Source of the DNA: Clostridia bacterium
GTDB taxonomy: Bacteria; Bacillota; Clostridia; Oscillospirales; CAG-272
Reading direction: 5' to 3'
Length of the DNA stretch: 64,000 bases
Assembly (NCBI GenBank): GCA_017467815.1
Contig: JAFUKI010000057.1
Span: 72,155 to 136,154, forward strand
Position numbers and translations under genes: made by a program. The notes under the pieces were generated by a model. That model did not search any database. It was not told the origin of the DNA and saw only the letters and a program-made list of their open reading frames with translations. This document shows positions 28,858 to 44,522 of this stretch, piece by piece; positions within the stretch are counted from its first letter, which is position 1; the number at the start of each line of letters is the position of its first letter.

Positions 28858-29589
28858 ATGAGTATTGCAGTTGTAACCGGTGTGGCAGGCGGAATCGGAA
28901 AAGCGAGCGCCATACTGCTTGCCCGGAAAGGGTATACGGTGGTGGGAATGGGACGGAGTTCCTCTCCCGATCTCACGGATTTTGAAGGTTTGGATATTGC
29001 CTATGTACAGGGGGACGTTTCCTGCCCCGAAGACCGTGCCAAACTGCTGGAAACAGCGGCGGATGCAGGGGATATCACTGTGCTGGTGAATGTAGCGGGA
29101 GTTGCGCCCAAGGTACGTCGGGATATTCTGGAAATGACAGAAGAAAGCTATGATTTCGTTATGGGCATCAACACCAAAGGCACGCTGTTCCTGACTCAGG
29201 CGGCTGCCAACATGATGCTGAAGCATGGCAAGGGCGGTGCGATTGTCAACATTTCCTCCTGCTCGGCTTATACCAGCTCCACCAGCCGCGGCGAATATTG
29301 TATTTCCAAAGCCGGCGTATCCATGATCACGAAGCTGTTTGCCGACCGTCTGGCAGGCACGGGAATCACAGTCAATGAAGTCTGTCCCGGTATCATCGCC
29401 ACCGGTATGACGGAAGCGGTCAAGGAAAAATACGATCGACTGATTGCAGACGGACTGGTTCCCATGGGTCGATGGGGAACCCCCGAAGACGTAGCCAAAA
29501 CCGTTGTCGCGCTGTGTGACGGCACTTTCGGCTACACGACCGGCACATCGCTGATCGTTGACGGCGGTATGCACATCAGAAGCTTATGA
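28858..29589 (+). CDS. SDR family oxidoreductase
   Basis: TGxxxGIG (VVTGVAGGIGKA), NISS, YxxxK (YCISKAG). Confidence 0.9.
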   Translation: MSIAVVTGVAGGIGKASAILLARKGYTVVGMGRSSSPDLTDFEGLDIAYVQGDVSCPEDRAKLLETAADAGDITVLVNVAGVAPKVRRDILEMTEESYDFVMGINTKGTLFLTQAAANMMLKHGKGGAIVNISSCSAYTSSTSRGEYCISKAGVSMITKLFADRLAGTGITVNEVCPGIIATGMTEAVKEKYDRLIADGLVPMGRWGTPEDVAKTVVALCDGTFGYTTGTSLIVDGGMHIRSL

Positions 29590-31385
29590 AAAAGAATTAT
29601 CATACACTCATTATCGGAACCGGATGTGCCGGGTACAATGCGGCTGACCGTTTGTATGATCTCGGTATCCGGGACATTGCCATCATCACCGAAGGCAGAT
29701 CTATGGGTACCTCCCGGAACACGGGAAGCGACAAACAGACCTATTACAAATTATCCCTGTGCGGCAGTGACGGTGACAGTGTCCGTGAAATGGCGGATAC
29801 CCTCTACTCCGGCGGCGGTGTCATGGGGGAACACGCCCTGTGCGAAGCGGCTTATTCCACCAGATGCTTCATGCGTCTTGTGGAGCTGGGTGTCCCCTTT
29901 CCTACCAACGAATACGGTGAATACGCCGGATACAAAACCGACCATGATCCCCGCAGCCGTGCTACCTCCTGCGGTCCGCTGACATCCCGGTATATGACCG
30001 AGGCACTGGAAAAATCCGTACTGAACAAAGGAATCGAAATCATTGATTTCCAGCGTGTAATCAAAATTCTCACCGACGACAACGGTGTTTGCGGCATTGC
30101 CTGCGCTTCCACGGTTACGGGCAGTATTACCGTGATCGGCTGTCAGAATGTGGTTCTCTGCACCGGTGGACCTGCCGGGATTTACAAAAACACTGTATAT
30201 CCTGAAAGTCAGCATGGCGCAACGGGACTTGCCATTGATGCCGGCGCTTCTCTTGTCAATATGGAACAATGGCAGTACGGTATCGCCAGTACGAAATTCC
30301 GCTGGAATCTGTCCGGTACATATCAGCAGGTACTGCCCCGGTATATTTCCGTGGATGAAGAAGGAAACGAGAGAGAATTTCTCTATGATGCGCTCGGCAC
30401 CGACTCTCTGGGACTAATTTTCCTCAAGGGATATCAGTGGCCTTTTGACACAAGGAAAACCGAAGGCTCCTCCAAGGTGGATCTTCTGGTTGCCGCCGAG
30501 GTCAAAAAGGGAAATCGCGTGTATCTTGATTTTCTCCGCAATCCCAAGGGTCTGGAAGAGGGATTTGCCCTTCTCCCCCCTGAAGCATACAACTATCTTG
30601 AACGCTCCGGCGCGCTGTTCGGCACCCCCATTGAACGGCTGCAGAAAATGAACAGCGGTGCCATTGAGCTTTATGCGGATCACGGTATTGATCTGTATAC
30701 GGAAAAACTGGAAATTGCCGTCTGCGCACAGCATTGTAACGGCGGCGTATTGGTGGACGGGCACTGGCAGAGCGATGTGGCAGGTCTGTACACCGCCGGT
30801 GAAGCTGCCGGAACCTTCGGGGTATACCGTCCGGGCGGAAGTGCGCTGAACTCCACCCAGGTGGGCAGTCTTCGTGCGGCGGAACATATTGCCGGACAGA
30901 CAAGAGCTGTCGGTACACTTCCCGCCTATACACCGCCCCGGATTCGTTACGGCAAATCCAATCTGGCGGAAATCCGGGATCTTCTGCAGACCGAAATGAG
31001 CCGTGCTGCCGATTTTGACAGAGACACGGCAGGGATGCGGAATCTTTTCGGCAGAGTATGTGAACTGTACGAACATTTTTTTGAGAATGTAATGATTGAC
31101 GACGCCTCCCAGGTCGCGGAACTGTTCAAGCTGTACGATATGGTGATTACCCAGCGTTCCGTACTCTCATCCATGCTTTGTTCGGCGGAAGCTGTGGGAA
31201 CGCACGGTTCGGCACTGGTTGACCGGAAACCGGATCAAAGCGGCGGCGTGCCGAGACAGAATCGTACCGTAACAAAGGGAGCCATATCCGAGATCCTGCC
31301 GATCTCCCCCATGCCCGATCCCGAACTCTGGTTTGAAACACTTCTGGCAAGACAAAAAAATCACTCTCAAGGAGGATTACGATGA
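29586..31385 (+). CDS. FAD-binding oxidoreductase (fumarate reductase/aspartate oxidase flavoprotein-like)
   Basis: N-terminal dinucleotide fold TLIIGTGCAGYNAADRL. 599 aa. Later motif GLYTAGEAAG. ATGA overlap with the SDR gene. Confidence 0.8.
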   Translation: MKKNYHTLIIGTGCAGYNAADRLYDLGIRDIAIITEGRSMGTSRNTGSDKQTYYKLSLCGSDGDSVREMADTLYSGGGVMGEHALCEAAYSTRCFMRLVELGVPFPTNEYGEYAGYKTDHDPRSRATSCGPLTSRYMTEALEKSVLNKGIEIIDFQRVIKILTDDNGVCGIACASTVTGSITVIGCQNVVLCTGGPAGIYKNTVYPESQHGATGLAIDAGASLVNMEQWQYGIASTKFRWNLSGTYQQVLPRYISVDEEGNEREFLYDALGTDSLGLIFLKGYQWPFDTRKTEGSSKVDLLVAAEVKKGNRVYLDFLRNPKGLEEGFALLPPEAYNYLERSGALFGTPIERLQKMNSGAIELYADHGIDLYTEKLEIAVCAQHCNGGVLVDGHWQSDVAGLYTAGEAAGTFGVYRPGGSALNSTQVGSLRAAEHIAGQTRAVGTLPAYTPPRIRYGKSNLAEIRDLLQTEMSRAADFDRDTAGMRNLFGRVCELYEHFFENVMIDDASQVAELFKLYDMVITQRSVLSSMLCSAEAVGTHGSALVDRKPDQSGGVPRQNRTVTKGAISEILPISPMPDPELWFETLLARQKNHSQGGLR

Positions 31386-32134
31386 ATAATGCATATAAGT
31401 TAGGGCTGGTCTCCATCTCCTTCCGGCAGCACAACCCACTGGAGATCCTGCAAGCCGTACAGAAAGCCGGTTTGTCCTGTATCGAATGGGGCAGTGACGT
31501 ACACGCACCGGCACACGAAATCGAAAAAGTCAAGGAAATTGCCGCCCTGCAGAAACAGTACGGCATCGAATGTTCCTCTTACGGGACCTATTTCCGTCTC
31601 ATGGTAACACCCATGGAAGAACTGCTCCCCCACATCGAAGCGGCTAAGATACTGGGTACAGACATTCTGCGTCTCTGGTGCGGTCCCCAAAGATCCGGTG
31701 CGGATCTGACACCTGCGGAAAAAGAAGAACTGTTCGATATTTGCCGTCAGGCGGAAAAGATCGCAGCAGAACATGGTGTGACGCTTTGTATGGAATGCCA
31801 CCAGAACACCTTCACTGAACGTGTGAGTGATGCTGTGGAACTGATGCAAGCTCTGTATTCTCCCCATTTCCAGATGTACTGGCAGCCTCTGCACGATGAT
31901 CCGGCGAAGAATGTGGCATCCGCCAGAGCAATCGCGCCCTACAGCAGCCATCTGCACGTATACAACTGGAATAGTCATGCACGTTATACCCTTGCCGATG
32001 CAGTGGATACATGGCGTTCCTATGTGAAAGAATTCACCACCCCCCGCACGCTTCTGCTGGAATTTATGCCGGACAACCGTCTGGAAACCCTTGTTACGGA
32101 AGCCGATGCACTGAGAAAAATTATCGGAGGTTAA
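31382..32134 (+). CDS. sugar phosphate isomerase/epimerase (xylose isomerase-like TIM barrel)
   Basis: 250 aa with family-typical layout (GLSCIEWGSDVH..., LCMECHQNTF). 4-nt overlap with the upstream gene. Confidence 0.75.
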   Translation: MNNAYKLGLVSISFRQHNPLEILQAVQKAGLSCIEWGSDVHAPAHEIEKVKEIAALQKQYGIECSSYGTYFRLMVTPMEELLPHIEAAKILGTDILRLWCGPQRSGADLTPAEKEELFDICRQAEKIAAEHGVTLCMECHQNTFTERVSDAVELMQALYSPHFQMYWQPLHDDPAKNVASARAIAPYSSHLHVYNWNSHARYTLADAVDTWRSYVKEFTTPRTLLLEFMPDNRLETLVTEADALRKIIGG

Positions 32135-32135
32135 G

Positions 32136-33137
32136 ATGAAAGCTATATTTTTGAACAAAAGTGCAGGTACAGTCCGCAATGTATACGGAAGTGAAACCAT
32201 CGCCGCTTTGCAGGCACGCTGTGAACTTTCCGATACTGTGTATAAAAAAGAGGATATTCTTGCCAATCCCGGACAGTTCGCCGATACGGAAGTTGCCTTC
32301 TCCACCTGGGGGATGCCTGTCTTCACGGAAGAAGAAATCAAAAGCTGTCTCCCCAATCTGAAATGCGTATTCTACGGTGCAGGCAGTGTACAGTTCTTTG
32401 CCCGTCCCTTCCTTGCCTGCGGTGTGAGAGTGGTCAGTGCGTGGGCAGCCAATGCGGTTCCCGTTGCGGAAATGACGGTTGCACAGATTATTCTCGGCAA
32501 TAACGGTTATTTCCCCAGCAGCAGATATTACAGCACGGGAGATCACAACGGTGCCTGTAACGCTGCCGACAGCTGCAGAGGGAACTATGGCGAAACCGTT
32601 GGTATCATCGGTGCCGGCATGATCGGTCGTCTGGTCATTCAGATGCTGAAGCAGTATGAACTGAAGGTGATTGTTTTCGACCCCTTCCTTCCCGACGAAA
32701 AAGCCGCCGAACTGGGTGTGGAAAAATGCGATCTGCCGACTCTGTTCGAGCGTGCTTTCGTGGTCTCCAACCATCTGGCAAACAATGCACAGACCAAGGG
32801 TATGCTGAATTACGATCTGTTCCGCCGTATGAGACATTACGGTGTATTCATCAATACCGGACGCGGTGCACAGGTCGTTGAGGATGATCTGGTTAGGATC
32901 CTGACAGAACGCCCTGACCTGACCGCTCTTCTGGACGTTACCCTCCCCGAACCGGTTGAACCCGGTCATGCTTTCTATTCCCTCCCGAACTGCCTCCTGA
33001 CACCCCACATTGCAGGAAGCAAGGGTGACGAAATCCGCCGTATGGGTAAGTATATGCTGAATGAATTTGATGCGTATCTTGCCGGAGAAGCTTTGAAGTA
33101 TGAAGTTTCCGAAGCAATGCTGGAGACGATGGCGTAA
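32136..33137 (+). CDS. D-isomer-specific 2-hydroxyacid dehydrogenase family protein
   Basis: NAD motif VGIIGAGMIGRLV, catalytic-region motifs INTGRGAQV and LTPHIAGS. Confidence 0.85.
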   Translation: MKAIFLNKSAGTVRNVYGSETIAALQARCELSDTVYKKEDILANPGQFADTEVAFSTWGMPVFTEEEIKSCLPNLKCVFYGAGSVQFFARPFLACGVRVVSAWAANAVPVAEMTVAQIILGNNGYFPSSRYYSTGDHNGACNAADSCRGNYGETVGIIGAGMIGRLVIQMLKQYELKVIVFDPFLPDEKAAELGVEKCDLPTLFERAFVVSNHLANNAQTKGMLNYDLFRRMRHYGVFINTGRGAQVVEDDLVRILTERPDLTALLDVTLPEPVEPGHAFYSLPNCLLTPHIAGSKGDEIRRMGKYMLNEFDAYLAGEALKYEVSEAMLETMA

Positions 33138-33180
33138 TAGAGCTGATATACGTTTTTTCAAAAGTCTCACATAAATGAGA

Positions 33181-33220
33181 AAATACCCCGACAGATTTTT
33201 TCAGTCTGTTGGGGTATTTT
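33181..33220. terminator. bidirectional hairpin terminator
   Basis: AAATACCCCGACAGA-loop-TCTGTTGGGGTATTTT between convergent genes. Confidence 0.5.
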
Positions 33221-33239
33221 CATTCCAATACGTTTATCA

Positions 33240-34112
33240 CTATTTTTGAAATTGTGTTTTTTCTTCGGTAAAGGTTAAAAATTCCTGATAAATATCATCG
33301 ATCTGCAGTCTGATCAGCTGGGCAAAGCTATGTTTACCGCATAGATATTGAACAAACTTTGCTCCAAGATAATATCCGACATCTCCTCTTCCGCAATAGT
33401 TCGCCCAATCACCGAAATACCTTTGATCAAATCTTGTCATTGTTGGCAAATCAGAATAAAAGTCCGATAGTATTTGCTTGAAATGATCATCACACCAATT
33501 CAGCCAGCCATTTTTGTCTTGGTGATAGTAATTCAGGTCATGAATCAGAACCTGTTCAAAGTACATTGCTATACCCTCGGTAAATAACTGCCAAACAAAA
33601 TTCTGGCTGCTGTTATCACAAGATTGATCCAATATACCATATTGTTTATGATATACGTGTCCTAATTCGTGATAAATCAGTCCATACATTGAATCCTCAT
33701 CGTACCAGTTCAGCTCAAGAATCTTTTCCATTCCTAACAGTATTACATCACGTCCATGAATATTGGTAACCCATCCCGCTGCATTGCAAAGTCCAAGATA
33801 TAAAACAATGTCAGCATCTAATTCATGTTCAAAGCAATCAATGATTCTTTCGTTTAAGCCATTTGTAACTTTTTGGAAGGAAATATGCATGGCTTCCAAT
33901 GCTGTATGACCGTGGACAGCGTTGATGATCGGTAAGATATCTTTTTCAAAAATGTAGTTTCCACTGTCCAGACATTCTTTTAAATCATCTTTGAAAATAT
34001 CAGCTGATCTTTCATAAATAAAATTCATATATTTTTCCCACATTACCAAATTGAATGTTCCATTATCGAACAAAGAATCAATCTGAGAAAATGTATCAAT
34101 GATTCTTATCAT
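33240..34112 (-). CDS. putative zinc-dependent peptidase (HExxH; DUF2268-like)
   Basis: 290-aa ORF with IYHELGHVYH. AT-rich coding sequence. The family call is from memory only. Confidence 0.55.
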   Translation of the reverse strand: MIRIIDTFSQIDSLFDNGTFNLVMWEKYMNFIYERSADIFKDDLKECLDSGNYIFEKDILPIINAVHGHTALEAMHISFQKVTNGLNERIIDCFEHELDADIVLYLGLCNAAGWVTNIHGRDVILLGMEKILELNWYDEDSMYGLIYHELGHVYHKQYGILDQSCDNSSQNFVWQLFTEGIAMYFEQVLIHDLNYYHQDKNGWLNWCDDHFKQILSDFYSDLPTMTRFDQRYFGDWANYCGRGDVGYYLGAKFVQYLCGKHSFAQLIRLQIDDIYQEFLTFTEEKTQFQK

Positions 34113-34476
34113 GTCAAGTACCTCGTAAACCCTAATTTATCGTTCCATTTTTCCTGTTTCCACATCTGCCGTAAGGGAGGGGGCGTTGTCAAGAGAGACA
34201 CCTCCCCTACAATGACAGAGAGAATATTTTTCTATTCTGCGTACATATCGCTATAAAATATGCGCCTGTTCTACTATAATCATAGCCATTTTATCGAAGT
34301 TCTTTTCTATTTGGCAGTTCCCTATCTTCTCCCATTCCTATCACCCAACAGTATTATACCACAAACTCTACAAAGAGACAATATCTCTACTGTCCTTTGC
34401 CTCCATACTTATGAAAGCAACCATATGTAGCCATTCTTCGCCTGAATTTCCATTCGTAACAAAATTATGAACTCTA

Positions 34477-34529
34477 TTGACAACTCCATTCTAACGTGTT
34501 AGAATATAAACACAATCTAATGCATTAGA
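34477..34529 (+). promoter_or_regulatory. promoter with two BlaI-type palindromic operators
   Basis: TTGACA (34477-34482), 17 nt, TAGAAT (34500-34505). Palindrome ATTCTAACGTGTTAGAAT (34488-34505) covers the spacer and -10. The second palindrome TCTAATGCATTAGA (34516-34529) lies just downstream. Confidence 0.5.
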
Positions 34530-34554
34530 ATGAAATTCGGAAAGGAGTATCCCA

Positions 34555-34926
34555 ATGGAAACACCGAAAATTTTTGAAAGTGAATATCGCTTCTGTCTGA
34601 TTCTGTGGGAACATGAACCCATCAAAAGTCCGCTTCTGGCGAAACTTTGTGCGGAACAGCTGGGGTGGAAAACCAGTACCACGTATACTGTCATCAAACG
34701 GCTTTCCGACAGAGGAATTCTGAAAAACGAAAATACCGTTGTCACATCTCTGGTATCCAAGGATGAAGTACAGGCGTCCGAGATTGATGAACTGGTGGAG
34801 AAAAAATTTGAAGGATCGCTGCCTGCATTCATTGCGGCGTTTACGAAGCATCAGAAATTGTCCGGGAAGGAGATTGACGAAATCCAGCGGATGATTGACC
34901 GGATGCGTGAAGGAGGGGCGGAATGA
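34555..34926 (+). CDS. BlaI/MecI/CopY family transcriptional repressor
   Basis: 123-aa winged-helix protein (SEYRFCLILWEHEPIKSPLLAKL...TVIKRLSDRGIL) with a C-terminal dimerisation helix. AAAGGAG RBS. Confidence 0.9.
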   Translation: METPKIFESEYRFCLILWEHEPIKSPLLAKLCAEQLGWKTSTTYTVIKRLSDRGILKNENTVVTSLVSKDEVQASEIDELVEKKFEGSLPAFIAAFTKHQKLSGKEIDEIQRMIDRMREGGAE

Positions 34927-37900
34927 GTGAAGTTTTTCTGAAAATGATAAACATGAGTATAACCGCAAGCTGGCTTGTTCTGGCGGTGTTCATACTCCGG
35001 TTTGTTCTGAAAAAAGCGCCGAAATGGGGGAATGTCCTGCTTTGGGGTATTGTGGCGGTACGGCTTCTGTTCCCCTTCTCCATCGAAAGTGCATTGAGTC
35101 TGATTCCCAGCACCCAGACCATCCCGCTGAATATTGAACTGAATACTGTCCCCGCTATCAACAGTGGTATTCCGGTGATCAACAATGTGGTAAATCCCAT
35201 CATCGTTGAATCCAACACACCGGCACCGGGCACAAGCGTCAATCCCCTGCAGATCGCCGTTGCAGTCTGTGCGAACATCTGGATTCTGGGCATTGCCGCT
35301 ATGCTGCTCTATACCACGGTCAGTTATCTGCACCTGCGGCGCCGGGTGGGGAGTGCTGTTCTGTACCGGGACAATATTTTCCAGAGTGAAAATGTGGACT
35401 CCCCCTTTGTACTGGGCATTGTGAAGCCGCGGATTTATACGCCCTTCGGACTGGATGACCACAGTCTGGAATACGTTATTGCCCATGAGCAGGCACATAT
35501 CCGCCGCCGGGATCACTGGTGGAAGCCTTTCGGATTTCTGCTGCTGGCGGTACATTGGTTCAACCCCATTCTTTGGCTGGCGTATGTGCTGTTCTGCCGG
35601 GATATTGAACTGGCCTGCGATGAAAAGGTGATCCGGGAAATGGATGACAGAGAACGTGCGAACTATTCCCAGGCACTCTTGGACTGCAGTGTGAACCGGC
35701 GTCTGATTTCCGCTTGTCCGCTGGCATTCGGTGAAGTCGGTGTCCGGGCGCGGATCAAGTCCGTTCTGCATTACAAGAAACCAGCATTCTGGATTATTCT
35801 GCTGGCACTTCTCGTCTGCGCGGTAACGGCGGTATGTTTTCTGACCGATCCCGTTACGGTGCGGAATCCCTGGGTACAGGAATATGAACCCGGCGCGGAA
35901 AACTCCATCGGCAGTGTGGACAAAGAGAAGTACGAAAGCATCAGTGCAGATTTTTCCATCGGGGCAGACAAGTACGGCAGGGCGGTGTTCAAGGACCCGG
36001 AAAAAGCCTTTGACACACTGAAGATCCTGTATGCCGAAGGGATCGCTTTGATCCGGGAAGAACAGGGACTGGGCGCGCTGTCCCACAGGAATTTTGATCT
36101 GTACAAAAAATTCGGTTGGCAGGTGACAGGCGGTACAGAAGAAGCCAGAGAACAGGCGGCTTTTGTATCCCGGTTTTTGGATATATACGAAAACAGTTTT
36201 ACAAAGGACACGCCAAATACCGATCTGCCGGAAGTGACACGTGAATATGAGTGGGAAATCGAAATGCTTCTGGTATCCAATATTTCCCCCAGACACCTTA
36301 CCTATGAGGAACTGAAAAATCAGCAGGAAGAAATCTGGGAATACACCAATGCCACAGTCAGTGCCTCTCAGATTATTGAATATCAGCAGAAAATCGAATC
36401 GGTGGATTACAGGTCCGGGGACCAGTATGTGACTGTGTATGTACGGGATTTCACCGATGAGGATATACAAAGATTTGAAAAAACATTCGGGCATTTCTCC
36501 TATGTACTGGTGCAAATACCAATGGAATGGATCCGTGGTACCGCCTGGGAGTGGGCACAGCAGATCGCTGAAGAGAAAGGACTTACGCTGGACAGAAGTA
36601 CGGAACACATCGTTTTCATCGAAACCGGCAGACATATGGGGGCAATGTATGTGGATTATTCCGTGGCAGACAGTATCTCTTGGATCAGGGTATACTTTTA
36701 CCGGGATGAAAATGGCAATTATGTTCCCGATCTGCTCAACCAGCGTCCCTGGGTTCCCAATACTCTCGTTGATGCGACCATTTCCGTCACGCTGGATGTT
36801 CCCTACGCCGTCCCCGAAGCGGTTCTGTCCTTGGGCGCCGGTCTTGTCAAGCAGGAAGTTTACGACTATAACCAATATGCCACCTCCCCCTACTCCCTGA
36901 CCGGTGCAAAAATCACAGCTCTGGAACGAATCGCGGAAGTGGAAACCGAACCGGACTGTGCAGTAGAGATGTACCGTCTGGAGTACAAGGTCATCCCCGA
37001 CGACCCGGATACGGCTCTGGAATACGGCAGAACTATGGACAATGGCTGTATCAACGAACCCATCACTGCCGGTCAGCCTTATCTGGTCATGTACCGCAGC
37101 TCGGCAGACGGTACGGATGTCTACACACGGATTTCCATCTCTGATTCTTTGCTGCTGCCTGATTATGAGACGGCGGAAATGCTGACGGAATACGGTGATC
37201 CATATACCGCCATGGCTATGGAGTTATATGAGAGATTTATCAGTATGCAGGAAGTGACCTTTCCTGACGATATCACAGATACAACTGAATTCAATGAAGA
37301 AAACCAACAACTCCTGTTCGGCACACCCACATCGTGGTTCTACGATACCGCCTGGGCAATCGCCATGCAGACCGCCGCAGAACAGGGACTGACGCTGGAT
37401 AAAGAAACCGGTACCATCACGCACAGCGAAAACGGCGAATATGTGGGTGTAGAGTATTACGAAGCCGATGGGGTCAAGCACGTACGTGTTGCCTTTTTCC
37501 GGGATGAAAACGGAGAATACAGCACCCAGCCGACTCCGTCTTCCGATGTCCCCGCTTCCCTGCTTCAGGCGGCATACGAAACAGCCTGTGGTGTGTATGA
37601 TGGGGTTCTGTCGGATACGCCCTATGCTATCCGCGGAAGCGTGAATGAAAATTATCTGGAGATCATCTTTCAGGCAGCAGACAAAACCATGTATGTGGGT
37701 GCGCTCTACGTCCGTAACAGTGAGAAGGATGACTGGATTCCCATGCCCGGTACGCCGACGGTTATCTACGATCCGACACGATGGGACAATACGGAATCCA
37801 TGATTATCTCCATTGATTTTGATTACGCTGTTCCCCAGGCGGTCACGGACTGGGCGGCAGAGCTTGTAAAACAGGAGATCGACAACCATAATATTCTGAA

Positions 37901-38711
37901 CAGTCAGCCGGATGTTACGACCAATGCCGCTTACTCTATTGTTGGTGCAAAGATAACAGGATTACGGAAACTGGCAGAAGCGGATACTTCAACAGAGGAA
38001 GACTGTGCTGTGGAAATCTATCTGCTGGAATACCGACTCAAACCCGACCATCCGGAAAATGTCCCGGCGATCGAAGGTATGGTTATGGAAGACGGCTGGA
38101 TCACGGAATCCTTCCGCGGCTGTCAGCCTTATCTGATCCTGTACCGGAACTCAACAAGCGGCACGGATGTATATACACGAATCACCACCGCAGATTCCGG
38201 TATGATTCTCGAATCCGCTGATGAAGAAACTATGCAGTGGTATTATGCTGAACTGGCAAAGGATCTGTACGAAGCATGGCGTCGGACGCAGGAGGTGACG
38301 TTCACAGGCATTATCACGGATTGGAATATTGTTTCTCCTGATGAAGATGGTGTCAGTATTCTGGATCTGAACATGGTAGAATTCATCACCTCGGAAGACA
38401 CGGAGCGTATTAAAGAACTGGAATTAAACTGGCAGGATATGCCCAACGGATACTATATCCATGATCCGGATGATCAGATGACAACACTGAAACTTCCCGA
38501 AAACACGGAATTTGTTTTCTACGACTGGTGGGATATATTTAATACTGTGGAAGATCCGCGGTATACAGTTACGGACGGGCGATGGATCACCACATCGGAT
38601 AGTGCCACATTTGCAGAGTATCTGAAAACCTATGACCCACATCCGGGTATGCCTTTCATCTTTACCGCAACGGAAGAAAGACTGACGATACAGGAAATTT
38701 TCGTACCCTGA
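34923..38711 (+). CDS. BlaR1/MecR1-like M56 family membrane metalloprotease with ~950-aa non-canonical ectodomain
   Basis: ATGA overlap with the repressor gene. TM helices and HEQAH zinc motif (aa 188-192). Last TM around aa 288-307. A long C-terminal region contains two related modules (aa ~539-780 and ~808-1127). Confidence 0.85.
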   Translation: MSEVFLKMINMSITASWLVLAVFILRFVLKKAPKWGNVLLWGIVAVRLLFPFSIESALSLIPSTQTIPLNIELNTVPAINSGIPVINNVVNPIIVESNTPAPGTSVNPLQIAVAVCANIWILGIAAMLLYTTVSYLHLRRRVGSAVLYRDNIFQSENVDSPFVLGIVKPRIYTPFGLDDHSLEYVIAHEQAHIRRRDHWWKPFGFLLLAVHWFNPILWLAYVLFCRDIELACDEKVIREMDDRERANYSQALLDCSVNRRLISACPLAFGEVGVRARIKSVLHYKKPAFWIILLALLVCAVTAVCFLTDPVTVRNPWVQEYEPGAENSIGSVDKEKYESISADFSIGADKYGRAVFKDPEKAFDTLKILYAEGIALIREEQGLGALSHRNFDLYKKFGWQVTGGTEEAREQAAFVSRFLDIYENSFTKDTPNTDLPEVTREYEWEIEMLLVSNISPRHLTYEELKNQQEEIWEYTNATVSASQIIEYQQKIESVDYRSGDQYVTVYVRDFTDEDIQRFEKTFGHFSYVLVQIPMEWIRGTAWEWAQQIAEEKGLTLDRSTEHIVFIETGRHMGAMYVDYSVADSISWIRVYFYRDENGNYVPDLLNQRPWVPNTLVDATISVTLDVPYAVPEAVLSLGAGLVKQEVYDYNQYATSPYSLTGAKITALERIAEVETEPDCAVEMYRLEYKVIPDDPDTALEYGRTMDNGCINEPITAGQPYLVMYRSSADGTDVYTRISISDSLLLPDYETAEMLTEYGDPYTAMAMELYERFISMQEVTFPDDITDTTEFNEENQQLLFGTPTSWFYDTAWAIAMQTAAEQGLTLDKETGTITHSENGEYVGVEYYEADGVKHVRVAFFRDENGEYSTQPTPSSDVPASLLQAAYETACGVYDGVLSDTPYAIRGSVNENYLEIIFQAADKTMYVGALYVRNSEKDDWIPMPGTPTVIYDPTRWDNTESMIISIDFDYAVPQAVTDWAAELVKQEIDNHNILNSQPDVTTNAAYSIVGAKITGLRKLAEADTSTEEDCAVEIYLLEYRLKPDHPENVPAIEGMVMEDGWITESFRGCQPYLILYRNSTSGTDVYTRITTADSGMILESADEETMQWYYAELAKDLYEAWRRTQEVTFTGIITDWNIVSPDEDGVSILDLNMVEFITSEDTERIKELELNWQDMPNGYYIHDPDDQMTTLKLPENTEFVFYDWWDIFNTVEDPRYTVTDGRWITTSDSATFAEYLKTYDPHPGMPFIFTATEERLTIQEIFVP

Positions 38712-38724
38712 ATAAGCACAAACC

Positions 38725-38768
38725 AAAACAGACCGACACCATTTTTCCGTGATGCCGGTCTGTTTTTC
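38725..38768. terminator. bidirectional hairpin terminator
   Basis: AAAACAGACCG...CGGTCTGTTTTT between convergent genes. Confidence 0.5.
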
Positions 38769-38775
38769 TATTCAC

Positions 38776-39192
38776 TTATCCGATCTTCTTATTAAACCGT
38801 TCTGCGGCGGCTTTTACGGAGAAATACACCGCCAGCCAGATCACAAAATAGCATACAACAAATATTACGCTGAAAATCACCAGTACCATCGGCTCAAAGG
38901 GAATCCAGGAGTTCAGCAGATAGCATCCTGCATAAGTGATATACAGAATCGTCAGGTGGAAAAACAGGGACTTTCCCACGGACCAATGCTCGATCTGGTT
39001 GAACACGCTGACTCCTGCCTGTACGAATGCGAGGATGTATGTGGAGACCACCGCGGTCAGCACTTCTCCCCCTGTCAGGGAAAAATCCTGTATGGTACAG
39101 CCCAGTATGGCGAAAACGATAGCGGCAACAATCGGACCGAATCCCCCGAAAAGCATACCGCGGTGCAAAAATGATTTTACATATGGATTCAT
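38776..39192 (-). CDS. DUF3021-like membrane protein
   Basis: 138 aa with four TM segments, immediately downstream (1-nt gap) of a LytTR regulator. This is the usual LytTR/DUF3021 pairing. Confidence 0.7.
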   Translation of the reverse strand: MNPYVKSFLHRGMLFGGFGPIVAAIVFAILGCTIQDFSLTGGEVLTAVVSTYILAFVQAGVSVFNQIEHWSVGKSLFFHLTILYITYAGCYLLNSWIPFEPMVLVIFSVIFVVCYFVIWLAVYFSVKAAAERFNKKIG

Positions 39193-39193
39193 A

Positions 39194-39712
39194 TTAAATA
39201 CCTAACCTTTCTTTGACCGATCTCATTTGTCTCCGGGACACGTAATCCCGGTATCCGTTTTTGAGGATCACCACCAGGGAGCCGCCGATGGATACGTCAA
39301 ACTTCCTGATCTGGGATATATTTACGAGACAGGACTGGTTGACTTTAAGAAAATCATCGGGATACAGTTCTTCCAGGCTGTAGAGTCTTTCCCTGACCTG
39401 GTATTTTCCCTCTTTCGCAGAAGCAAACACCTTATTCCCCTCCGTGAAAAAGCAATACACATTTTCTGTCCCGAGCTTCACAATGTCCTGCCCGGAATAA
39501 CCGTAGAGAACATCTGCCGGTCCTTTCAGCAGGGCTTCCATCCTGTCCAGTATCTCTGAGGTTTGTCTGGCAGATATGAGAATGTCCTCCTTCTGCTTTG
39601 GATTGATTTCAATTCTGTATTTCATTCTTTCCGCAGCACGGCAGTCGTCAGTCCGTATCAACGATTCATGAAACTGTTTGTTTTGTGCCCGCTCACTGTT
39701 TGTTTTATCCAT
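39194..39712 (-). CDS. LytTR family DNA-binding protein (no receiver domain)
   Basis: C-terminal LytTR domain (VYCFFTEGNKVFASAKEGKYQVRERLYSLEE...FLKVNQSCLVNISQIRKF). AGGAGA RBS before ATG 39712. An alternative internal start (MKYRIEI, 39625) is possible. Confidence 0.8.
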   Translation of the reverse strand: MDKTNSERAQNKQFHESLIRTDDCRAAERMKYRIEINPKQKEDILISARQTSEILDRMEALLKGPADVLYGYSGQDIVKLGTENVYCFFTEGNKVFASAKEGKYQVRERLYSLEELYPDDFLKVNQSCLVNISQIRKFDVSIGGSLVVILKNGYRDYVSRRQMRSVKERLGI

Positions 39713-39843
39713 TTTAAACTTTTCTCCTGTTTTCTGTTCACGCGTGATACCGGTCCCTCCCGGTATTTACATTGTATCGCAGATCATCCGTGAAGTCAAT
39801 GGTTTTGACGTATGCGGCAGTTTTGTCATAATATCCGGCAAAC

Positions 39844-39890
39844 AGAAAAATCCCACCCTGACCTTCCGGGAAAGAAAGTCGGGGTGGGGT
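39844..39890 (-). terminator. rho-independent terminator of the mannitol-dehydrogenase-family gene
   Basis: On the minus strand: ACCCCACCCCGAC-loop-GTCAGGGTGGGAT followed by TTTTTCT. Confidence 0.5.
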
Positions 39891-39907
39891 TTGTGTTTCG
39901 TTTGGGT

Positions 39908-41074
39908 TTATTCCAGAATCGCATCCGCTGCCGCAACGATTTCCATATAATCCGCACCGGCAGAGAATTTTTCGTACAGTGCCAACGCAGTTTCTTTATA
40001 GGCACCTTCGGATACACCGGTCAGTTCCGCGAATACCTTATCCGCATCACCGCCGTTTTCACGGATGTATACACACAGGGCAGCGGCGGCACCTGCGGCA
40101 ATATACACCGGTTTGCCCCCTGCTTCCATTACGGAAAGGGATGCGCCGGTCAGTCTGTCGGCATTCGCCAGTTTTCTCGGAATGTCCGCGCCAACTCTGG
40201 CACAGGTATCTCCAAGGGCTGTATTGCCGAAACGACGGATCAGGTCGTTGGTATGTTCGATCAGCACTTCGAAGGGCTGGCTGAAGCGCTTTGCCAGAGC
40301 AACGGCACTTTCCGTCATGGCTTCTCTGACGATCAGACGGATTTTGGGGTCAGCAATCGCTTCGCTGATGTAGGTATATCCTTTCAGCATCCCCAGATAG
40401 GCGCAGATGGCGTGTCCCATATTGTGGATGTACAGCTTCCGTTCAATAATAAAGCGGAAAGGGGCGATGGGGGACAGGGCGGGCATAACGGGAATCTCAC
40501 CCTTGAAAGCATCCTTATCGCAGGGGAGATCCAGAAAACTTTCCGCACGAACCAGCAGAGGATCGATTTTCGCCAGTTCCGGATCCGGTACGGGTACCAT
40601 ACGTCCTACGGAAGTTTCGATCAGTCCTACATTTGCCAGTTCGTCCGGTGTCAGTTCCGGTTCCAGCAGAGAATGGATGTATTTGTCCGCATCCATCAGG
40701 TTTTCGCAGATCAGGAGATTGAAGGGTCTGCCGGTTTCTCCGTGACGCAGTCTGATACCGCCTGCCAGATTGGGAATGATGTACTTCAGCGCTTTTGCCC
40801 CTACGCAGGTAACGCAGATATCCGAGTCCGCGATCACACGGCAGGCTTTTTCCCTGTCATTTCCGTTGACGGCGGAAACATTGCGGATCATAACCCGATG
40901 GGAAGCGCCGGTTTTTACAATTTCAACAGGATATTCATGCCGCTCATTCAGGGCATTCACAATTACTTCGGATACATCCACAAAACACACATTGTATCCG
41001 CCTTCATACAGAATCTGCGCCGCAAAACCGCGTCCGATATTGCCGGCACCGATGATTACCGCATTTTTAGTCAT
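39908..41074 (-). CDS. mannitol dehydrogenase family protein (mannitol-1-phosphate 5-dehydrogenase-like)
   Basis: N-terminus AVIIGAGNIGRGFAAQIL...FVDV, as in MtlD. 388 aa. Confidence 0.75.
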   Translation of the reverse strand: MTKNAVIIGAGNIGRGFAAQILYEGGYNVCFVDVSEVIVNALNERHEYPVEIVKTGASHRVMIRNVSAVNGNDREKACRVIADSDICVTCVGAKALKYIIPNLAGGIRLRHGETGRPFNLLICENLMDADKYIHSLLEPELTPDELANVGLIETSVGRMVPVPDPELAKIDPLLVRAESFLDLPCDKDAFKGEIPVMPALSPIAPFRFIIERKLYIHNMGHAICAYLGMLKGYTYISEAIADPKIRLIVREAMTESAVALAKRFSQPFEVLIEHTNDLIRRFGNTALGDTCARVGADIPRKLANADRLTGASLSVMEAGGKPVYIAAGAAAALCVYIRENGGDADKVFAELTGVSEGAYKETALALYEKFSAGADYMEIVAAADAILE

Positions 41075-41102
41075 AGTCGTATTCTCCGTTTAGTATTTTC
41101 CT

Positions 41103-42113
41103 TTATGCAAGTTTGCCGTTTTCCACGATCTTCCGGATTTCCTCTGCCGTACGCATACCGCTGATGGAATCGGCTGCGGTCAGGTTACACACAGCGGCAG
41201 CAGATGCAAAATCAAGGAGATCGTCATTGTCAATACCGGTGTACAGACCGTACAGACAGCCTGCACAGAACGCATCGCCTGCGCCCACTTTTCCGGCAAT
41301 CAGAGCAGGATCAATGTCAACCGCAGGAGCATAGGTAAACGCTCCGTTGGCATCCAGCATGAAACCTGCTTCCTTACTGTGCAGGATCACGCGGTCTTTT
41401 ACCCCAAGATCCATCATCATCTTCATGGTTGCATACATATTGTCCGGATCCATGGAACCGTCCTCTTTGCGGGGATTCAGTCCGGACACGCCGCAGCCTT
41501 CGATTTCGTTCATGATGGCGTAATTGCAGTATTTCAGAGCAGGTACGATTTTTTCCTTGAAGCGGAGAGAAGAATCGCTTACCACGTCAATGGAAGTTTT
41601 GATCCCCTTCGCCTGGATTTTCGCCAGCAAACGCGCCAGTCTTGTACCGTATTCTTCATCAGCTTCGTCCATGGTGTCCAACAGCAGGATATAACCGATG
41701 TGGAAAATATCGCAGTCCAGTGCGTCCACATCAATATCTTCCGGGGCAAACAGGGCATTGGCGCCTCTTGCGTGGAAGAAGGTACGTTCTCCGGTGGAAA
41801 CATCACTCATAACATCGGAAAAGCTGGTGGGGGCATCGGGAGTAACGATCACTCCGTCGGTATTGATTCCATGCGCCTGCATCATGGCGGTGACATACTG
41901 ACCGTAGGCATCATCGCCCACTCTGCCCAGTGCAGTGATCGGGATATTCGGATCTATTTTTGCAAGGTCGATGGCTGTATTGGGTACGGCGCCGCCGACT
42001 GCCTGTTTAACGGAAGTGATGGTGGCCAGCATCCCCACCTGCGGAAAGCCGGTGATGTTTTTCACAACGTCCACTAAGATATTCCCGGCAAACACAATTC
42101 CGGATCTTGACAT
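41103..42113 (-). CDS. PfkB family carbohydrate kinase
   Basis: Ribokinase-like fold motifs GGAVPNTAIDL and C-terminal GAGDAFCAG. 336 aa. Confidence 0.85.
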   Translation of the reverse strand: MSRSGIVFAGNILVDVVKNITGFPQVGMLATITSVKQAVGGAVPNTAIDLAKIDPNIPITALGRVGDDAYGQYVTAMMQAHGINTDGVIVTPDAPTSFSDVMSDVSTGERTFFHARGANALFAPEDIDVDALDCDIFHIGYILLLDTMDEADEEYGTRLARLLAKIQAKGIKTSIDVVSDSSLRFKEKIVPALKYCNYAIMNEIEGCGVSGLNPRKEDGSMDPDNMYATMKMMMDLGVKDRVILHSKEAGFMLDANGAFTYAPAVDIDPALIAGKVGAGDAFCAGCLYGLYTGIDNDDLLDFASAAAVCNLTAADSISGMRTAEEIRKIVENGKLA

Positions 42114-42432
42114 AACAAACCTCCTGGCTATATGTAAAAAAATGTATTTTGGATTTCCTGCACATATTATATCACATATCCCAAAGGGAAGTCAAGGTCA
42201 TTCCCCTTCCATCACGCCGTCATGAGAATATTTTCCGTCATGTATATACACAAAATTCCCCCATTATCTTATTATATTTACACAAACTTGTTGAAAAAAC
42301 AACCGATTTGTGGTATCATATCTCTATACTATTGAAAAACCGGAAACAGTGCGGAGATCACAAAGCATCCGATACGGTTTCCGGCATATCTGCAGCAATA
42401 CAAATTCAAATCTATGGAGGAAACGAACACCA

Positions 42433-44502
42433 ATGAATCAGATGGACAAAAAATACGAAGCGTTGTTTACCCCGTGGAAGATCGGTAATGTGGAGATCAA
42501 AAACCGAATCGTGATGTGCCCGATGGGCGGCACTTCCCTGTTCGGCTGGTTTGAGCTGGGCGGCTGCCACTTCGACAGAGAAGCCGCAAAACTCTTTCTG
42601 GAAAGAGCAAACAACAATGTAGGTCTTATCATCCCCGGTATTGCCCCCCTGAGAGATACCTTCTGGGGTAAGTGGCTGTGGCAGAATCCGAAGATGTTTG
42701 ACGAGCTGAAAGTGTTTATGGAGGAGATCCACAAAACCGGTGCCAAACTGTTTATTCAGCTGACTGCCGGTATGGGCCGTTCCTGGGCGATCACCGAACT
42801 GGTAGCTCCCCTCCACAAAAACAAATTCACCCGCGCACTGATCAAGCCCATCATCGACACCTCCCACGAACTGGCATGCCCCAGTGAACAGCCCTCCCGC
42901 TGGGCACACGATATTATCTGTCCCGAAATGACGGTGGAACAGATTCACGAAATCATCGAAGCCTTTGCCAAGACCGCAAAGCTGTGCAAGGAAGCCGGTG
43001 TTGATGGTGTGGAAGTCCACGCTGTACACGAAGGATATCTGCTGGACCAGTTCTCTATCGAATTCTTCAACAAACGAACCGACGATTACGGCGGAAGCTT
43101 TGAAAACCGTTACCGTTTTGCGGCAGAAGTTGTCAAAGCCATCAAAGAAGCCTGCGGTACGGAATATCCTGTATCCCTGCGTTATTCCGTAGAATCCAAG
43201 ATGAAAGGATTCTGTGAAGGTGCGATGCCGGGCGAAACATACACCGAAGTGGGCAGAAACATGGAAGAATCCGAAAAGGCGGTAAAGTATCTGCAGGATG
43301 CCGGATACGATATGCTCAATGCGGACAACGGTACCTACGACTCCTGGTACTGGGCGCATCCGCCGATGTATATGCCGGAAAACTGCAACCTGGACGATGT
43401 TGCCCATATCAAGCAATTCGTGGACATTCCCGTGGTATGCGCCGGCAGAATGGATGCGGAAACCGGTGCAAAAGCCGTTGCGGAAGGCAGAATTGACGCT
43501 GTGGGTGTTGCCCGTCAGTTCCTCACCGACCCGGAATGGATCACCAAGCTGATCGAAAACAGATTGGAAGACATCAAACCCTGCATCTGCTGTCACAGCG
43601 GCTGTTTCAATTTCTCCTCCTCCAAGGGTCACGCCAACACCCAGGATCTGACGGATACCATGGGTCTGGCGCGCTGTGCCCTCAATCCCGAAACCATGCA
43701 GTCCACAAAATACTTTGTTGAACCCGCCAAGGTGCAGAAGAATATTGCCATCATCGGCGGCGGTATCGGCGGTATGGAAGCAGCCATTCTCTGTGCAAAG
43801 CGCGGACATAAGGTTACCCTTTACGAAAAAACCGGTGAACTGGGCGGTGTATTCATTGCGGCTGCTGCGCCTTCCTTCAAGGAAAAAGACCGCGCACTGA
43901 TCGCCTGGTACATCCGCGAGCTGTCCAAGCATCCCATTACAGTGAAACTGAACACCGAAATCACCGATGTGAAATCCCTTGATGCTGACGAAATCATTGT
44001 GGCAACCGGCGCAAAAGCCAAGAAGATTCCCGTAAAGGGGGCAGAGAGTGCCATTGAAGCGGTTGATTTCCTGCTGGGCAAGGCGGAAGTCGGCGAAAAT
44101 GTCACCATCATCGGCGGCGGTCTGACCGGCTGTGAAATCGCTTACGAACTGTATCTCCGGGGTAAAAAGCCTACCATTGTGGAAATGCAGGATGACCTGA
44201 TCACCACAAAGGGTATTTGCCTTGCCAACACCAGTTACCTCCGTGATTTCTTCAAGACCAACAAAGTTCCCGTACATCTGGAAACTTCCCTGTGCGAAAT
44301 CGGCAGCGGTGCGGTCACCGTAAAGGACAAGGATGGCAAAACATTCGATATTCCTGCGGATTCCGTCATTCTGTCCGTTGGTTACACCCCCGATCCCGTG
44401 TCCCCCAAGGGCAAGCATATTCACGTTGTCGGCGATGCTTCCCAGGTGGGCAACCTGAGAACGGTTATCTGGGGCGCATGGAATGTGTGCATGAAACTCT
44501 GA
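42433..44502 (+). CDS. 2-enoate reductase / 2,4-dienoyl-CoA reductase-like flavoprotein (OYE domain + Fe-S + FAD/NAD(P) domain)
   Basis: OYE-like N-terminus (IKNRIVMCPMGG, VEVHAVHEGYLLDQF...YGGSFENRYR), Cys cluster CICCHSGC...C, dinucleotide motifs IIGGGIGG and IIGGGLTG. Start moved to ATG 42433 behind GGAGGA. Confidence 0.85.
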   Translation: MNQMDKKYEALFTPWKIGNVEIKNRIVMCPMGGTSLFGWFELGGCHFDREAAKLFLERANNNVGLIIPGIAPLRDTFWGKWLWQNPKMFDELKVFMEEIHKTGAKLFIQLTAGMGRSWAITELVAPLHKNKFTRALIKPIIDTSHELACPSEQPSRWAHDIICPEMTVEQIHEIIEAFAKTAKLCKEAGVDGVEVHAVHEGYLLDQFSIEFFNKRTDDYGGSFENRYRFAAEVVKAIKEACGTEYPVSLRYSVESKMKGFCEGAMPGETYTEVGRNMEESEKAVKYLQDAGYDMLNADNGTYDSWYWAHPPMYMPENCNLDDVAHIKQFVDIPVVCAGRMDAETGAKAVAEGRIDAVGVARQFLTDPEWITKLIENRLEDIKPCICCHSGCFNFSSSKGHANTQDLTDTMGLARCALNPETMQSTKYFVEPAKVQKNIAIIGGGIGGMEAAILCAKRGHKVTLYEKTGELGGVFIAAAAPSFKEKDRALIAWYIRELSKHPITVKLNTEITDVKSLDADEIIVATGAKAKKIPVKGAESAIEAVDFLLGKAEVGENVTIIGGGLTGCEIAYELYLRGKKPTIVEMQDDLITTKGICLANTSYLRDFFKTNKVPVHLETSLCEIGSGAVTVKDKDGKTFDIPADSVILSVGYTPDPVSPKGKHIHVVGDASQVGNLRTVIWGAWNVCMKL

Positions 44503-44522
44503 TTTGATAAGGAGAATGGATC

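Follow-up and report, generated by a model that had tools for sequence, protein, structure and literature searches.

The stretch of Clostridia bacterium DNA analysed here (64 kb of contig JAFUKI010000057.1, hereafter the window) contains a two-gene operon, blaI-blaR, in which the gene for a BlaI-like repressor is followed by the gene for a 1262-aa protein that combines an M56 membrane metalloprotease part with a very long C-terminal region. Our results indicate that this operon is probably a chromosomal, autorepressed BlaI/M56 proteolytic switch of a non-beta-lactam type in an uncultured gut bacterium of Oscillospiraceae type. We assign it to the M56 family and to the non-canonical BlaIR class rather than to the BlaR1/MecR1 beta-lactam sensors, as the penicillin-binding domain that defines the latter was tested for and found to be absent.

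In the mechanism that we propose, a BlaI dimer would bind two TCTAAY-NN-RTTAGA dyads and thereby shut the blaI-blaR promoter. The 1262-aa protein would be held in the membrane by four transmembrane (TM) helices, with its gluzincin site facing the cytoplasm and its C-terminal 955 residues exposed outward as a string of domains in the order J1-J2-A-B-A-A'-B-C. The protease would be switched on when this ectodomain meets an extracytoplasmic cue, and the active protease would cut BlaI near A95-F96, derepressing the operon as well as any other promoters carrying the dyad. We infer the membrane topology, the signal-induced proteolysis and the cleavage site from S. aureus BlaR1/BlaI.

The blaI-blaR operon and its promoter

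The repressor gene extends from 34555 to 34926 on the plus strand and encodes a 123-aa protein consisting of a winged helix plus C-terminal dimerisation helices. The long M56 gene (1262 aa) occupies 34923-38711 of the same strand, its start ATG overlapping the blaI stop codon TGA (ATGA; the junction letters are GGAATGAGT). This overlap had been proposed in an earlier reading of the stretch from its letters (hereafter the sequence-only reading), and the open reading frame (ORF) list and the junction letters reproduced it exactly.

The repressor matched the Pfam family Penicillinase_R (PF03965) over aa 9-115 of its 123 residues with E=1.3e-19 (71.1 bits, cut-off 22.6). It also aligned over aa 3-116 with the MecI entries 1sd6 (E=2.6e-5) and 1okr (E=4.8e-5), and with the BlaI entry 1sd4 (E=1.6e-4). 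The aligned counterpart of the MecI/BlaI scissile bond is A95-F96, in which the P1' Phe is kept; the cleavage site of S. aureus BlaI/MecI, which we take to be N101-F102, lies in the dimerisation helix. In 79 of 80 related loci the gene immediately 5' of the M56 gene encodes a BlaI homolog. As the other neighbours were not conserved, BlaI is the sole conserved partner of the long gene. BlaI identity among the best-matching loci listed was 77-93%, compared to 55-68% for the M56 part.

The M56 membrane metalloprotease part spans aa 1-306 (34923-35840, plus strand), as delimited by Pfam, hydropathy and alignment with BlaR1. Peptidase_M56 (PF05569) matched aa 7-279 of the long protein with E=4.8e-52 (177.4 bits, cut-off 31), and aa 148-283 aligned with the cryo-EM entry 8exs of S. 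aureus BlaR1. The zinc-binding HEQAH motif (aa 188-192, 35484-35498), followed by D197, aligned with HEYAH of BlaR1, and the EXXXD motif E229-L-A-C-D233 (35607-35621), the region of the third zinc ligand, aligned with the E..EAD stretch of the same protein. The published M56 active-site signature comprises HEXXH, an Asp five residues on and EXXXD (10.64898/2026.08.03.742534), all of which was found in the long protein (H188-H192, D197 and E229-D233). The Pfam match and the motif itself thus uphold the assignment of the first ~300 aa to a BlaR1/MecR1-type M56 protease, which the sequence-only reading had made with HEQAH at these same positions.

Hydropathy analysis identified hydrophobic spans at aa 4-31, 36-61, 106-134 and 284-306, an embedded helix at 205-225 and a YKK motif preceding the last span. 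This profile, from a method that does not predict orientation, would be consistent with the BlaR1 topology, in which the protease loop joins the third of four TM helices to the fourth. Given the four spans and the YKK motif before the last one, hydropathy and the BlaR1 topology together suggest that aa 308-1262 are located outside the cell.

A sigma-70-type promoter of the blaI-blaR operon was identified at 34477-34505 (plus strand), consisting of TTGACA (34477-34482), a 17-nt spacer and TAGAAT (34500-34505) with an extended TG. It was the top promoter match in the 6-kb region, agreeing at 11 of 12 positions. Dyad 1, TCTAAC-GT-GTTAGA (34490-34503), is a 100% complementary inverted repeat that matches the operator pattern exactly; its arms extend to ATTCTAAC/GTTAGAAT (34488-34505), and the right arm doubles as the -10 box. 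Dyad 2, TCTAAT-GC-ATTAGA (34516-34529), is a perfect 14-bp palindrome that likewise matches the pattern exactly. It follows dyad 1 at a spacing of 26 bp and separates the -10 box from a ribosome-binding site (AAGGAG, 34542-34547, plus strand) that was read from the letters 7 nt 5' of the blaI ATG and is kept in the aligned upstream regions.

Searching the 64-kb window with at most one mismatch to the dyad pattern returned the two blaI sites alone, with 0.4 expected by chance; at two mismatches the window contained 5 matches compared to 5.9 expected, and nothing past the two true sites. Among the 80 related loci, 38 carried the exact pattern 5' of blaI, and ~0.9 Mb of flanking sequence from these loci contained no further dyads besides those upstream of blaI. 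We aligned 31 two-dyad promoters (the window and 30 related loci), in which TTGACA was invariant and dyad 1 supplied the -10 box. Dyad 2 began 26 bp past dyad 1 in 22 of the 30 related loci with two dyads. As a strong promoter with two dyads is kept in these 31 loci, we conclude that the blaI-blaR operon is very probably autorepressed.

A scan of all genomes with the operator pattern was of no use for defining the regulon; the matches listed were chance palindromes in archaea, Planctomycetes and others. Paralogous blaIR pairs within one genome (L020 and L023, JBMNNB01) had identical promoter/operator sequences. Because paralog operators are identical and BlaI is better conserved than the M56 part, paralogous repressors may cross-regulate one another's operons. 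A different operator was seen at the blaI promoter of another M56 subclade, which is characterised by the N-terminus MTE..SS.LIL...LRH.LKG.ISLRLQYALW. At one locus of this subclade (L205, 5290-5345) the dyads are TGTAAAC/GTTTACA, nearer the classical TACA/TGTA BlaI box.

Architecture and relatives of the ectodomain

Alignments and structure prediction indicate that the 955-residue ectodomain is composed of eight domains from five families (J1, J2, A, B and C). Sub-domain borders were obtained by iterative local search, and domain hidden Markov models (HMMs) confirmed the order, giving the layout M56-J1-J2-A-B-A-A'-B-C for the long protein. AlphaFold2 models of aa 305-540 and aa 801-1262 had a mean predicted local distance difference test score (pLDDT) of 86 and 83, respectively. 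All coordinates that follow are on the plus strand. The juxtamembrane domain J1 (aa 308-440, 35844-36242), defined by alignment and AlphaFold, is predicted to be mainly helical with a pLDDT mostly >90. It is the best-conserved extracytoplasmic part, with invariant DF-IGAD-YGR-VFK-P and FLDIYENSF. J2 (aa 445-535, 36255-36527), defined in the same way, is a small alpha/beta domain in which the predicted order strand-helix-strand-strand-helix-strand (pLDDT about 90) forms a small alpha/beta sandwich.

The A domains are ~75 aa in size and the B domains ~165 aa. A1 (aa 533-607, 36519-36743; domain HMM E=3.9e-25) is 48% identical to A2 (aa 802-873, 37326-37541; E=5.1e-33), the model of which contains a helix (3-20) and three strands (25-34, 40-47 and 53-60) at a pLDDT of about 90. 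B1 (aa 622-780, 36786-37262) and B2 (aa 962-1127, 37806-38303) were detected by the domain HMM with E=1.7e-52 and E=2.6e-53, respectively, and B was modelled as a five-stranded antiparallel sheet that is preceded by one long helix and followed by another at the C-terminal end (pLDDT about 90 for B2). The protein ends with the beta-rich C domain (aa 1128-1262, 38304-38708; pLDDT 82-93), which was delimited by alignment.

The sequence-only reading had described an internal duplication of a 250-320-aa module. A BLASTP comparison of aa 521-800 with aa 791-1140 aligned the two copies with E=2e-41 (38% over 227 columns; E=2e-16 for a second high-scoring segment pair), so the repeated unit is real. 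However, A and B occur separately in other proteins, and the unit is therefore not one module but two independent domains. The strings listed as common to the copies were each found once per copy at the expected places, except for FRDENG[NE]Y. This string occurs only once, as copy 1 reads YRDENGNY; the string truly shared by both copies is RDENG[NE]Y. The ~90-aa insertion described for copy 2 also exists (aa 876-960, 37548-37802), and in fact it is a further, divergent A copy, A'. This assignment rests on the same predicted fold order in the A and A' models, one helix followed by a three-stranded sheet, and on an hhalign comparison of A with A' (probability 78%, E=1.7e-5, 64 columns).

The ectodomain is strongly acidic, with 172 Asp+Glu compared to 67 Lys+Arg in aa 308-1262, and has 5 Cys in its 955 residues. 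A string of eight globules could reach through the thick Gram-positive wall; we draw no functional conclusion from either the length or the acidity.

A search with aa 308-1262 retrieved 103 proteins, every one of which contained M56, and the parts that they share were mapped by local BLAST. The sequence from aa 1 to about aa 436 of the window protein was common to all 103 relatives, with J1 being 55-70% identical throughout. J2 (the sequence up to about aa 531-557) was common to about 30 of them and the last ~140 residues to about a dozen. The C domain was found in P0002-5, 7, 9, 11-13, 26 and 148 at 41-67% identity, and A' stood alone after J1 in P0033-P0038. J1, J2 and C therefore recur in other M56 proteins in different combinations. 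The duplicated module was present in only one of the 103 relatives, the ortholog P0002, and there in single copy; domain HMMs gave the layout M56-J1-J2-A-A'-B-C for this protein. The whole-protein relatives were found in Clostridia from the gut and the rumen, several paralogs to a genome; these Clostridia include Oscillospiraceae, Faecousia, Acutalibacteraceae, Lachnospiraceae and Hominicoprocola.

An exhaustive profile search with the module alignment, covering 1.84 billion cluster representatives with E up to 1e-3, matched 193 clusters, nearly all of them at profile positions ~155-325 only. An M56 domain was detected in 99 of the 149 B matches listed. B and M56 were in one ORF at 23 of 33 genomic loci, most of the others being cut by contig ends. 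Fusion of the module to M56 had been proposed as a check on the sequence-only reading, and B proved to be almost always M56-linked. From these matches B appears to be widespread and essentially M56-specific. Its typical form was confined to Clostridia in reference genomes, and it is present in the cultured Oscillibacter valericigenes Sjm18-20 and Evtepia gabavorous; the former has an M56-B gene together with BlaI at AP012044 493532-500011.

P0002 was alone among the representative B matches in having J1. B started no more than 60 residues past the preceding TM helix in 64 of the 140 B proteins that have such a helix. In another M56 subclade, therefore, B is usually the ectodomain nearest the membrane, and the window lineage is a rare case in which A/B modules are joined to proteins of the J1-J2 subclade. 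Eight other proteins also have B copies in tandem. The closest relative of B1 among all retrieved proteins was B2 of the same protein (44% identity), whereas B2 was 60% identical to the single B of P0002. The A1-B1 module is absent from that ortholog. As B1 is nearest to B2 and B2 is nearer the ortholog B, the extra A-B module appears to be an old internal duplication that was either lost in the ortholog lineage or diverged fast in the window lineage.

Two loci encode apparently standalone B proteins. In L205 (5744-6627), next to a BlaI gene, a stub of the M56 N-terminus precedes B, which lies in a different frame, and in L084 (327-1768) a TM4-B tail directly follows blaI. Both appear to be deletion derivatives of M56-B genes from which the protease core was lost, and for this reason the idea that standalone B lipoproteins are BlaI targets or protease-free sensors was set aside as the primary reading. 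The derivatives may be assembly errors, pseudogenes or working forms that lack the protease.

Pfam and NCBIfam searches with the whole long protein and with single segments matched nothing in the ectodomain, and per-member Pfam scans of the 55- and 31-member alignments (E up to 1) revealed no recurring family. Pfam scans of 20 B-domain relatives returned M56, one DUF5301 match, one weak TPR_19 match and nothing else. PDB sequence and profile searches with the ectodomain found nothing. Foldseek searches of PDB and BFVD returned nothing above a TM-score of about 0.2; for aa 801-1262 this negative comes from one four-domain model, with which a distant match, most of all one for the 75-residue A, may be missed. 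A likeness of that model to beta-propellers and tail fibres, seen as long alignments to PDB and BFVD entries, had TM-scores of at most 0.15 and was dismissed as meaningless. The best Foldseek match of aa 305-540 had E=0.27; the recurring matches for J2 were generic small alpha/beta sandwiches (DUF59, alpha-lytic protease pro-region), and J1 had no Pfam, PDB or Foldseek match. A PepSY-like identity of A, which its topology and sequence pattern had suggested, is not claimed, as Pfam PepSY did not match. The AlphaFold/Foldseek analysis that the sequence-only reading had recommended thus yielded confident models of aa 305-540 and aa 801-1262 and no known fold. The statement in that reading that the module fits no family agrees with the Pfam, NCBIfam and PDB results for every ectodomain segment.

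Signal reception and competing readings

B is our best candidate for a ligand-binding unit, because in another M56 subclade it is usually the ectodomain next to the membrane. Beyond this, we tentatively suggest, as a conjecture to which we give less than an even chance, that B, possibly with A, is an undescribed extracytoplasmic ligand-binding family dedicated to Oscillospirales M56 proteins, the arrays of which would be multivalent for a polymeric or wall cue. If so, this locus and the ~190 B clusters would represent a new receptor class within BlaR-type signalling, the cue could be a glycan, a polymer of the envelope or the surface of a phage or host, and paralogous pairs could cross-talk via a common operator.

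Several points weigh against the proteolytic switch as proposed above. That the ectodomain is the sensor is an assumption, as no ligand-binding fold was recognised in it. At P1 of the expected scissile bond, canonically N-F, the window repressor has Ala rather than the Asn of S. aureus BlaI/MecI. The 64-kb window and the ~0.9 Mb of related flanks contained no second operator and no output gene beyond the operon, and autoregulation alone would give no obvious physiological effect. Finally, no inducing signal could be found for CenIR, the only non-canonical Clostridial system that has been studied (PMC13492132).

One alternative places signal reception in J1 rather than in A/B, in which case the distal J2-A-B-A-A'-B-C would be a wall-spanning stalk or an anchoring/adhesion array that binds no inducer. 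J1 is the sole ectodomain piece common to the whole subclade, with the rest being variable or absent, and it adjoins TM4, where BlaR1 holds its sensor domain. Moreover, the distal modules are freely swapped among relatives, the ortholog having one module fewer. However, the occurrence of B near the TM helix without J1 in another M56 subclade implies that B can couple directly to the protease, and variable distal domains are what would be expected of specificity determinants. No Pfam match to a wall-binding domain (SLH, LysM, CWB or PG_binding) was found in any piece of the ectodomain. We consider this alternative possible but doubtful.

A second alternative is that signalling has been lost, the protease being silent or acting on other substrates and the ectodomain being a surface protein that BlaI keeps at a low level. 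The visible regulon is the operon itself only, and the derivatives that retain BlaI and a B ectodomain without the protease core suggest that the ectodomain may have value without proteolysis. Nevertheless, we regard loss of signalling as unlikely, given that the M56 catalytic motifs are intact in both the window protein and the ortholog, that M56 and the ectodomain form one ORF at most loci, and that the operon architecture is tightly conserved.

BlaR1 and MecR1 provide a family precedent for a third alternative, a cryptic beta-lactam or cell-wall-antibiotic sensor in which some ectodomain domain binds beta-lactams or peptidoglycan fragments and was missed by the searches. A PBP5-like carboxypeptidase a few genes from one B-domain locus also points this way, weakly and circumstantially. 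The results for the window protein make such a sensor very improbable. The Pfam scan of the long protein gave no match to the transpeptidase family PF00905, no K[TS]G motif occurs anywhere in aa 308-1262, and the sole SxxK strings are in unrelated helical regions. The NCBIfam model blaR1_generic scored 71.3 against a cut-off of 400 and covered the protease part only, and the MecR1/BlaR1 exception models scored 54 and 20 against a cut-off of 1200. Each ectodomain domain is predicted to be far smaller than, and unlike, the ~250-aa class D fold. No significant penicillin-binding protein (PBP) or class D beta-lactamase fold was among the Foldseek matches, which included a lone PBP2a row with a TM-score of 0.09. 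No beta-lactamase or PBP gene is present in or beside the operon, the neighbours of which are metabolic genes and a LytTR pair. The sequence-only reading had seen neither an acyl-serine sensor signature in the ectodomain nor a resistance or effector gene in the operon, and on both counts our results agree with it; other known sensor folds were looked for as well, and none was found.

A CopY-type repressor freed by metal, with the M56 protein being accessory or unrelated, is barely credible: although BlaI, MecI and CopY belong to one family of one fold and the NCBIfam CopY/TcrY model (TIGR02698) matched weakly (E=3.8e-11), its score was 43.3 compared to a cut-off of 121.95, the 123-aa repressor contains no C-terminal CxCxxxxCxC metal motif (its two Cys are C14 and C32, and its tail reads ...DRMREGGAE), no copper ATPase or chaperone gene is near the operon, and the repressor gene is translationally coupled to the M56 protease in 79/80 loci.

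Known systems and genomic setting

The window operon shares several features with well-studied systems. As in S. aureus BlaR1/BlaI, MecR1/MecI and B. licheniformis BlaR/BlaI, the repressor gene precedes the sensor-protease gene in one operon that is autoregulated. Also in common with these systems are a winged-helix repressor, an M56 gluzincin with the HEXXH and EXXXD motifs, which in the window protein are predicted to lie between TM3 and TM4, and a pair of operator dyads placed on the promoter and immediately past it. In contrast, BlaR1 and MecR1 have a class D-like acyl-serine sensor, a single domain of ~250 aa, whereas the window protein has none and carries 955 aa that appear to form eight domains. 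The operator half-site is TCTAAY/RTTAGA rather than the classical BlaI TACA/TGTA, and no resistance gene is linked to the window operon.

In 2026, work on C. difficile CenIR included a survey of about 15,000 M56 proteins, only ~6% of which had a transpeptidase sensor; the commonest architecture was M56 followed by a C-terminal region in which no domain could be identified, and about 96% were near a BlaI-like gene (PMC13492132). The window protein belongs to this commonest class. The same study considers regulated proteolysis of BlaI by its cognate M56 protease to be the common mechanism of the family (PMC13492132). The sequence-only reading had treated the missing sensor as a departure from expectation, a view that does not hold: because only ~6% of M56 proteins have the transpeptidase domain (PMC13492132), absence of the beta-lactam sensor is the rule and the locus is less exceptional than it seemed. 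CenIR resembles the window system in being a Clostridial M56 protein with a BlaI-like repressor and no beta-lactam-binding or identifiable C-terminal domain. However, CenR has a tail of ~125 aa for which mostly unstructured sequence is predicted, whereas the 955-aa tail of the window protein is confidently predicted to be folded. The targets of CenI include a linked exported protein as well as cell-wall enzymes, whereas no target was found for the window BlaI, and the C. difficile tails were reported to be mutually non-homologous, whereas the window pieces J1, A, B and C are recurring families (PMC13492132). The BlaR/BlaI systems of M. tuberculosis and M. abscessus and PvmSR of P. aeruginosa also share the M56 signature, a BlaI-type partner and the lack of linkage to beta-lactam resistance (10.64898/2026.08.03.742534). 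Their proteins essentially end after the protease and the last TM helix, the window protein being the opposite extreme, and the gene order of PvmSR differs from blaI-blaR (10.64898/2026.08.03.742534). What distinguishes the window locus is the size and foldedness of its ectodomain, its recurring, shuffled families and a module present twice where the ortholog has it once.

It is a recent insight that BlaI/BlaR signalling is a general transmembrane route rather than a penicillin alarm alone. The tails studied earlier were short and disordered, whereas the domains of the window ectodomain could be expressed, crystallised and screened for ligands. A reporter could be derived directly from the sharply defined, conserved promoter/operator, and the presence of B in cultured strains makes experiments feasible. 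A ligand, if found, would be a first clue to what is detected by the many BlaR-like sensors in abundant Clostridia of the gut; without one, the locus adds another member to a large class that lacks annotation.

Downstream of blaR, a hairpin with a 17-bp stem and A and T runs at its flanks (38725-38766) is predicted from the sequence to be a bidirectional terminator that the operon shares with a convergent DUF3021 gene and that ends the two-gene operon. An Rfam scan of 33000-40000 found no RNA element. The convergent two-gene unit (38776-39712, minus strand) encodes a 138-aa DUF3021 membrane protein (PF11457, E=2.6e-18) and a 172-aa LytTR protein (PF04397, E=1e-20) without a receiver domain. 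This arrangement is reminiscent of LytTR regulatory systems that consist of a LytTR activator and a membrane protein inhibiting it. The pair was rejected as a functional partner of blaIR, as it was found in the ortholog locus only and in no other blaIR locus.

The window regions 29586-33137 and 39908-45797 encode FAD_binding_2, AP_endonuc_2, 2-Hacid_dh, mannitol dehydrogenase, PfkB kinase, Oxidored_FMN and AcnX proteins. In the ortholog locus, genes for an FAD oxidoreductase, AP_endonuc_2 and 2-Hacid_dh lie upstream of blaI and blaR, and DUF3021, LytTR, mannitol dehydrogenase and PfkB genes follow downstream. The metabolic neighbours, an even GC content around the operon and the lack of mobile-element signs indicate that the operon has a chromosomal setting and is not part of an island. 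Divergent from blaI is a 290-aa ORF (33240-34112, minus strand) with a HELGH motif (YHELGHVYH) and no Pfam or NCBIfam match. It was rejected as a partner, as neither the otherwise syntenic ortholog locus nor any of the 80 related loci contains it. This ORF appears to be a lineage-specific insertion between 2-Hacid_dh and blaI, and it may encode an unannotated zinc hydrolase.

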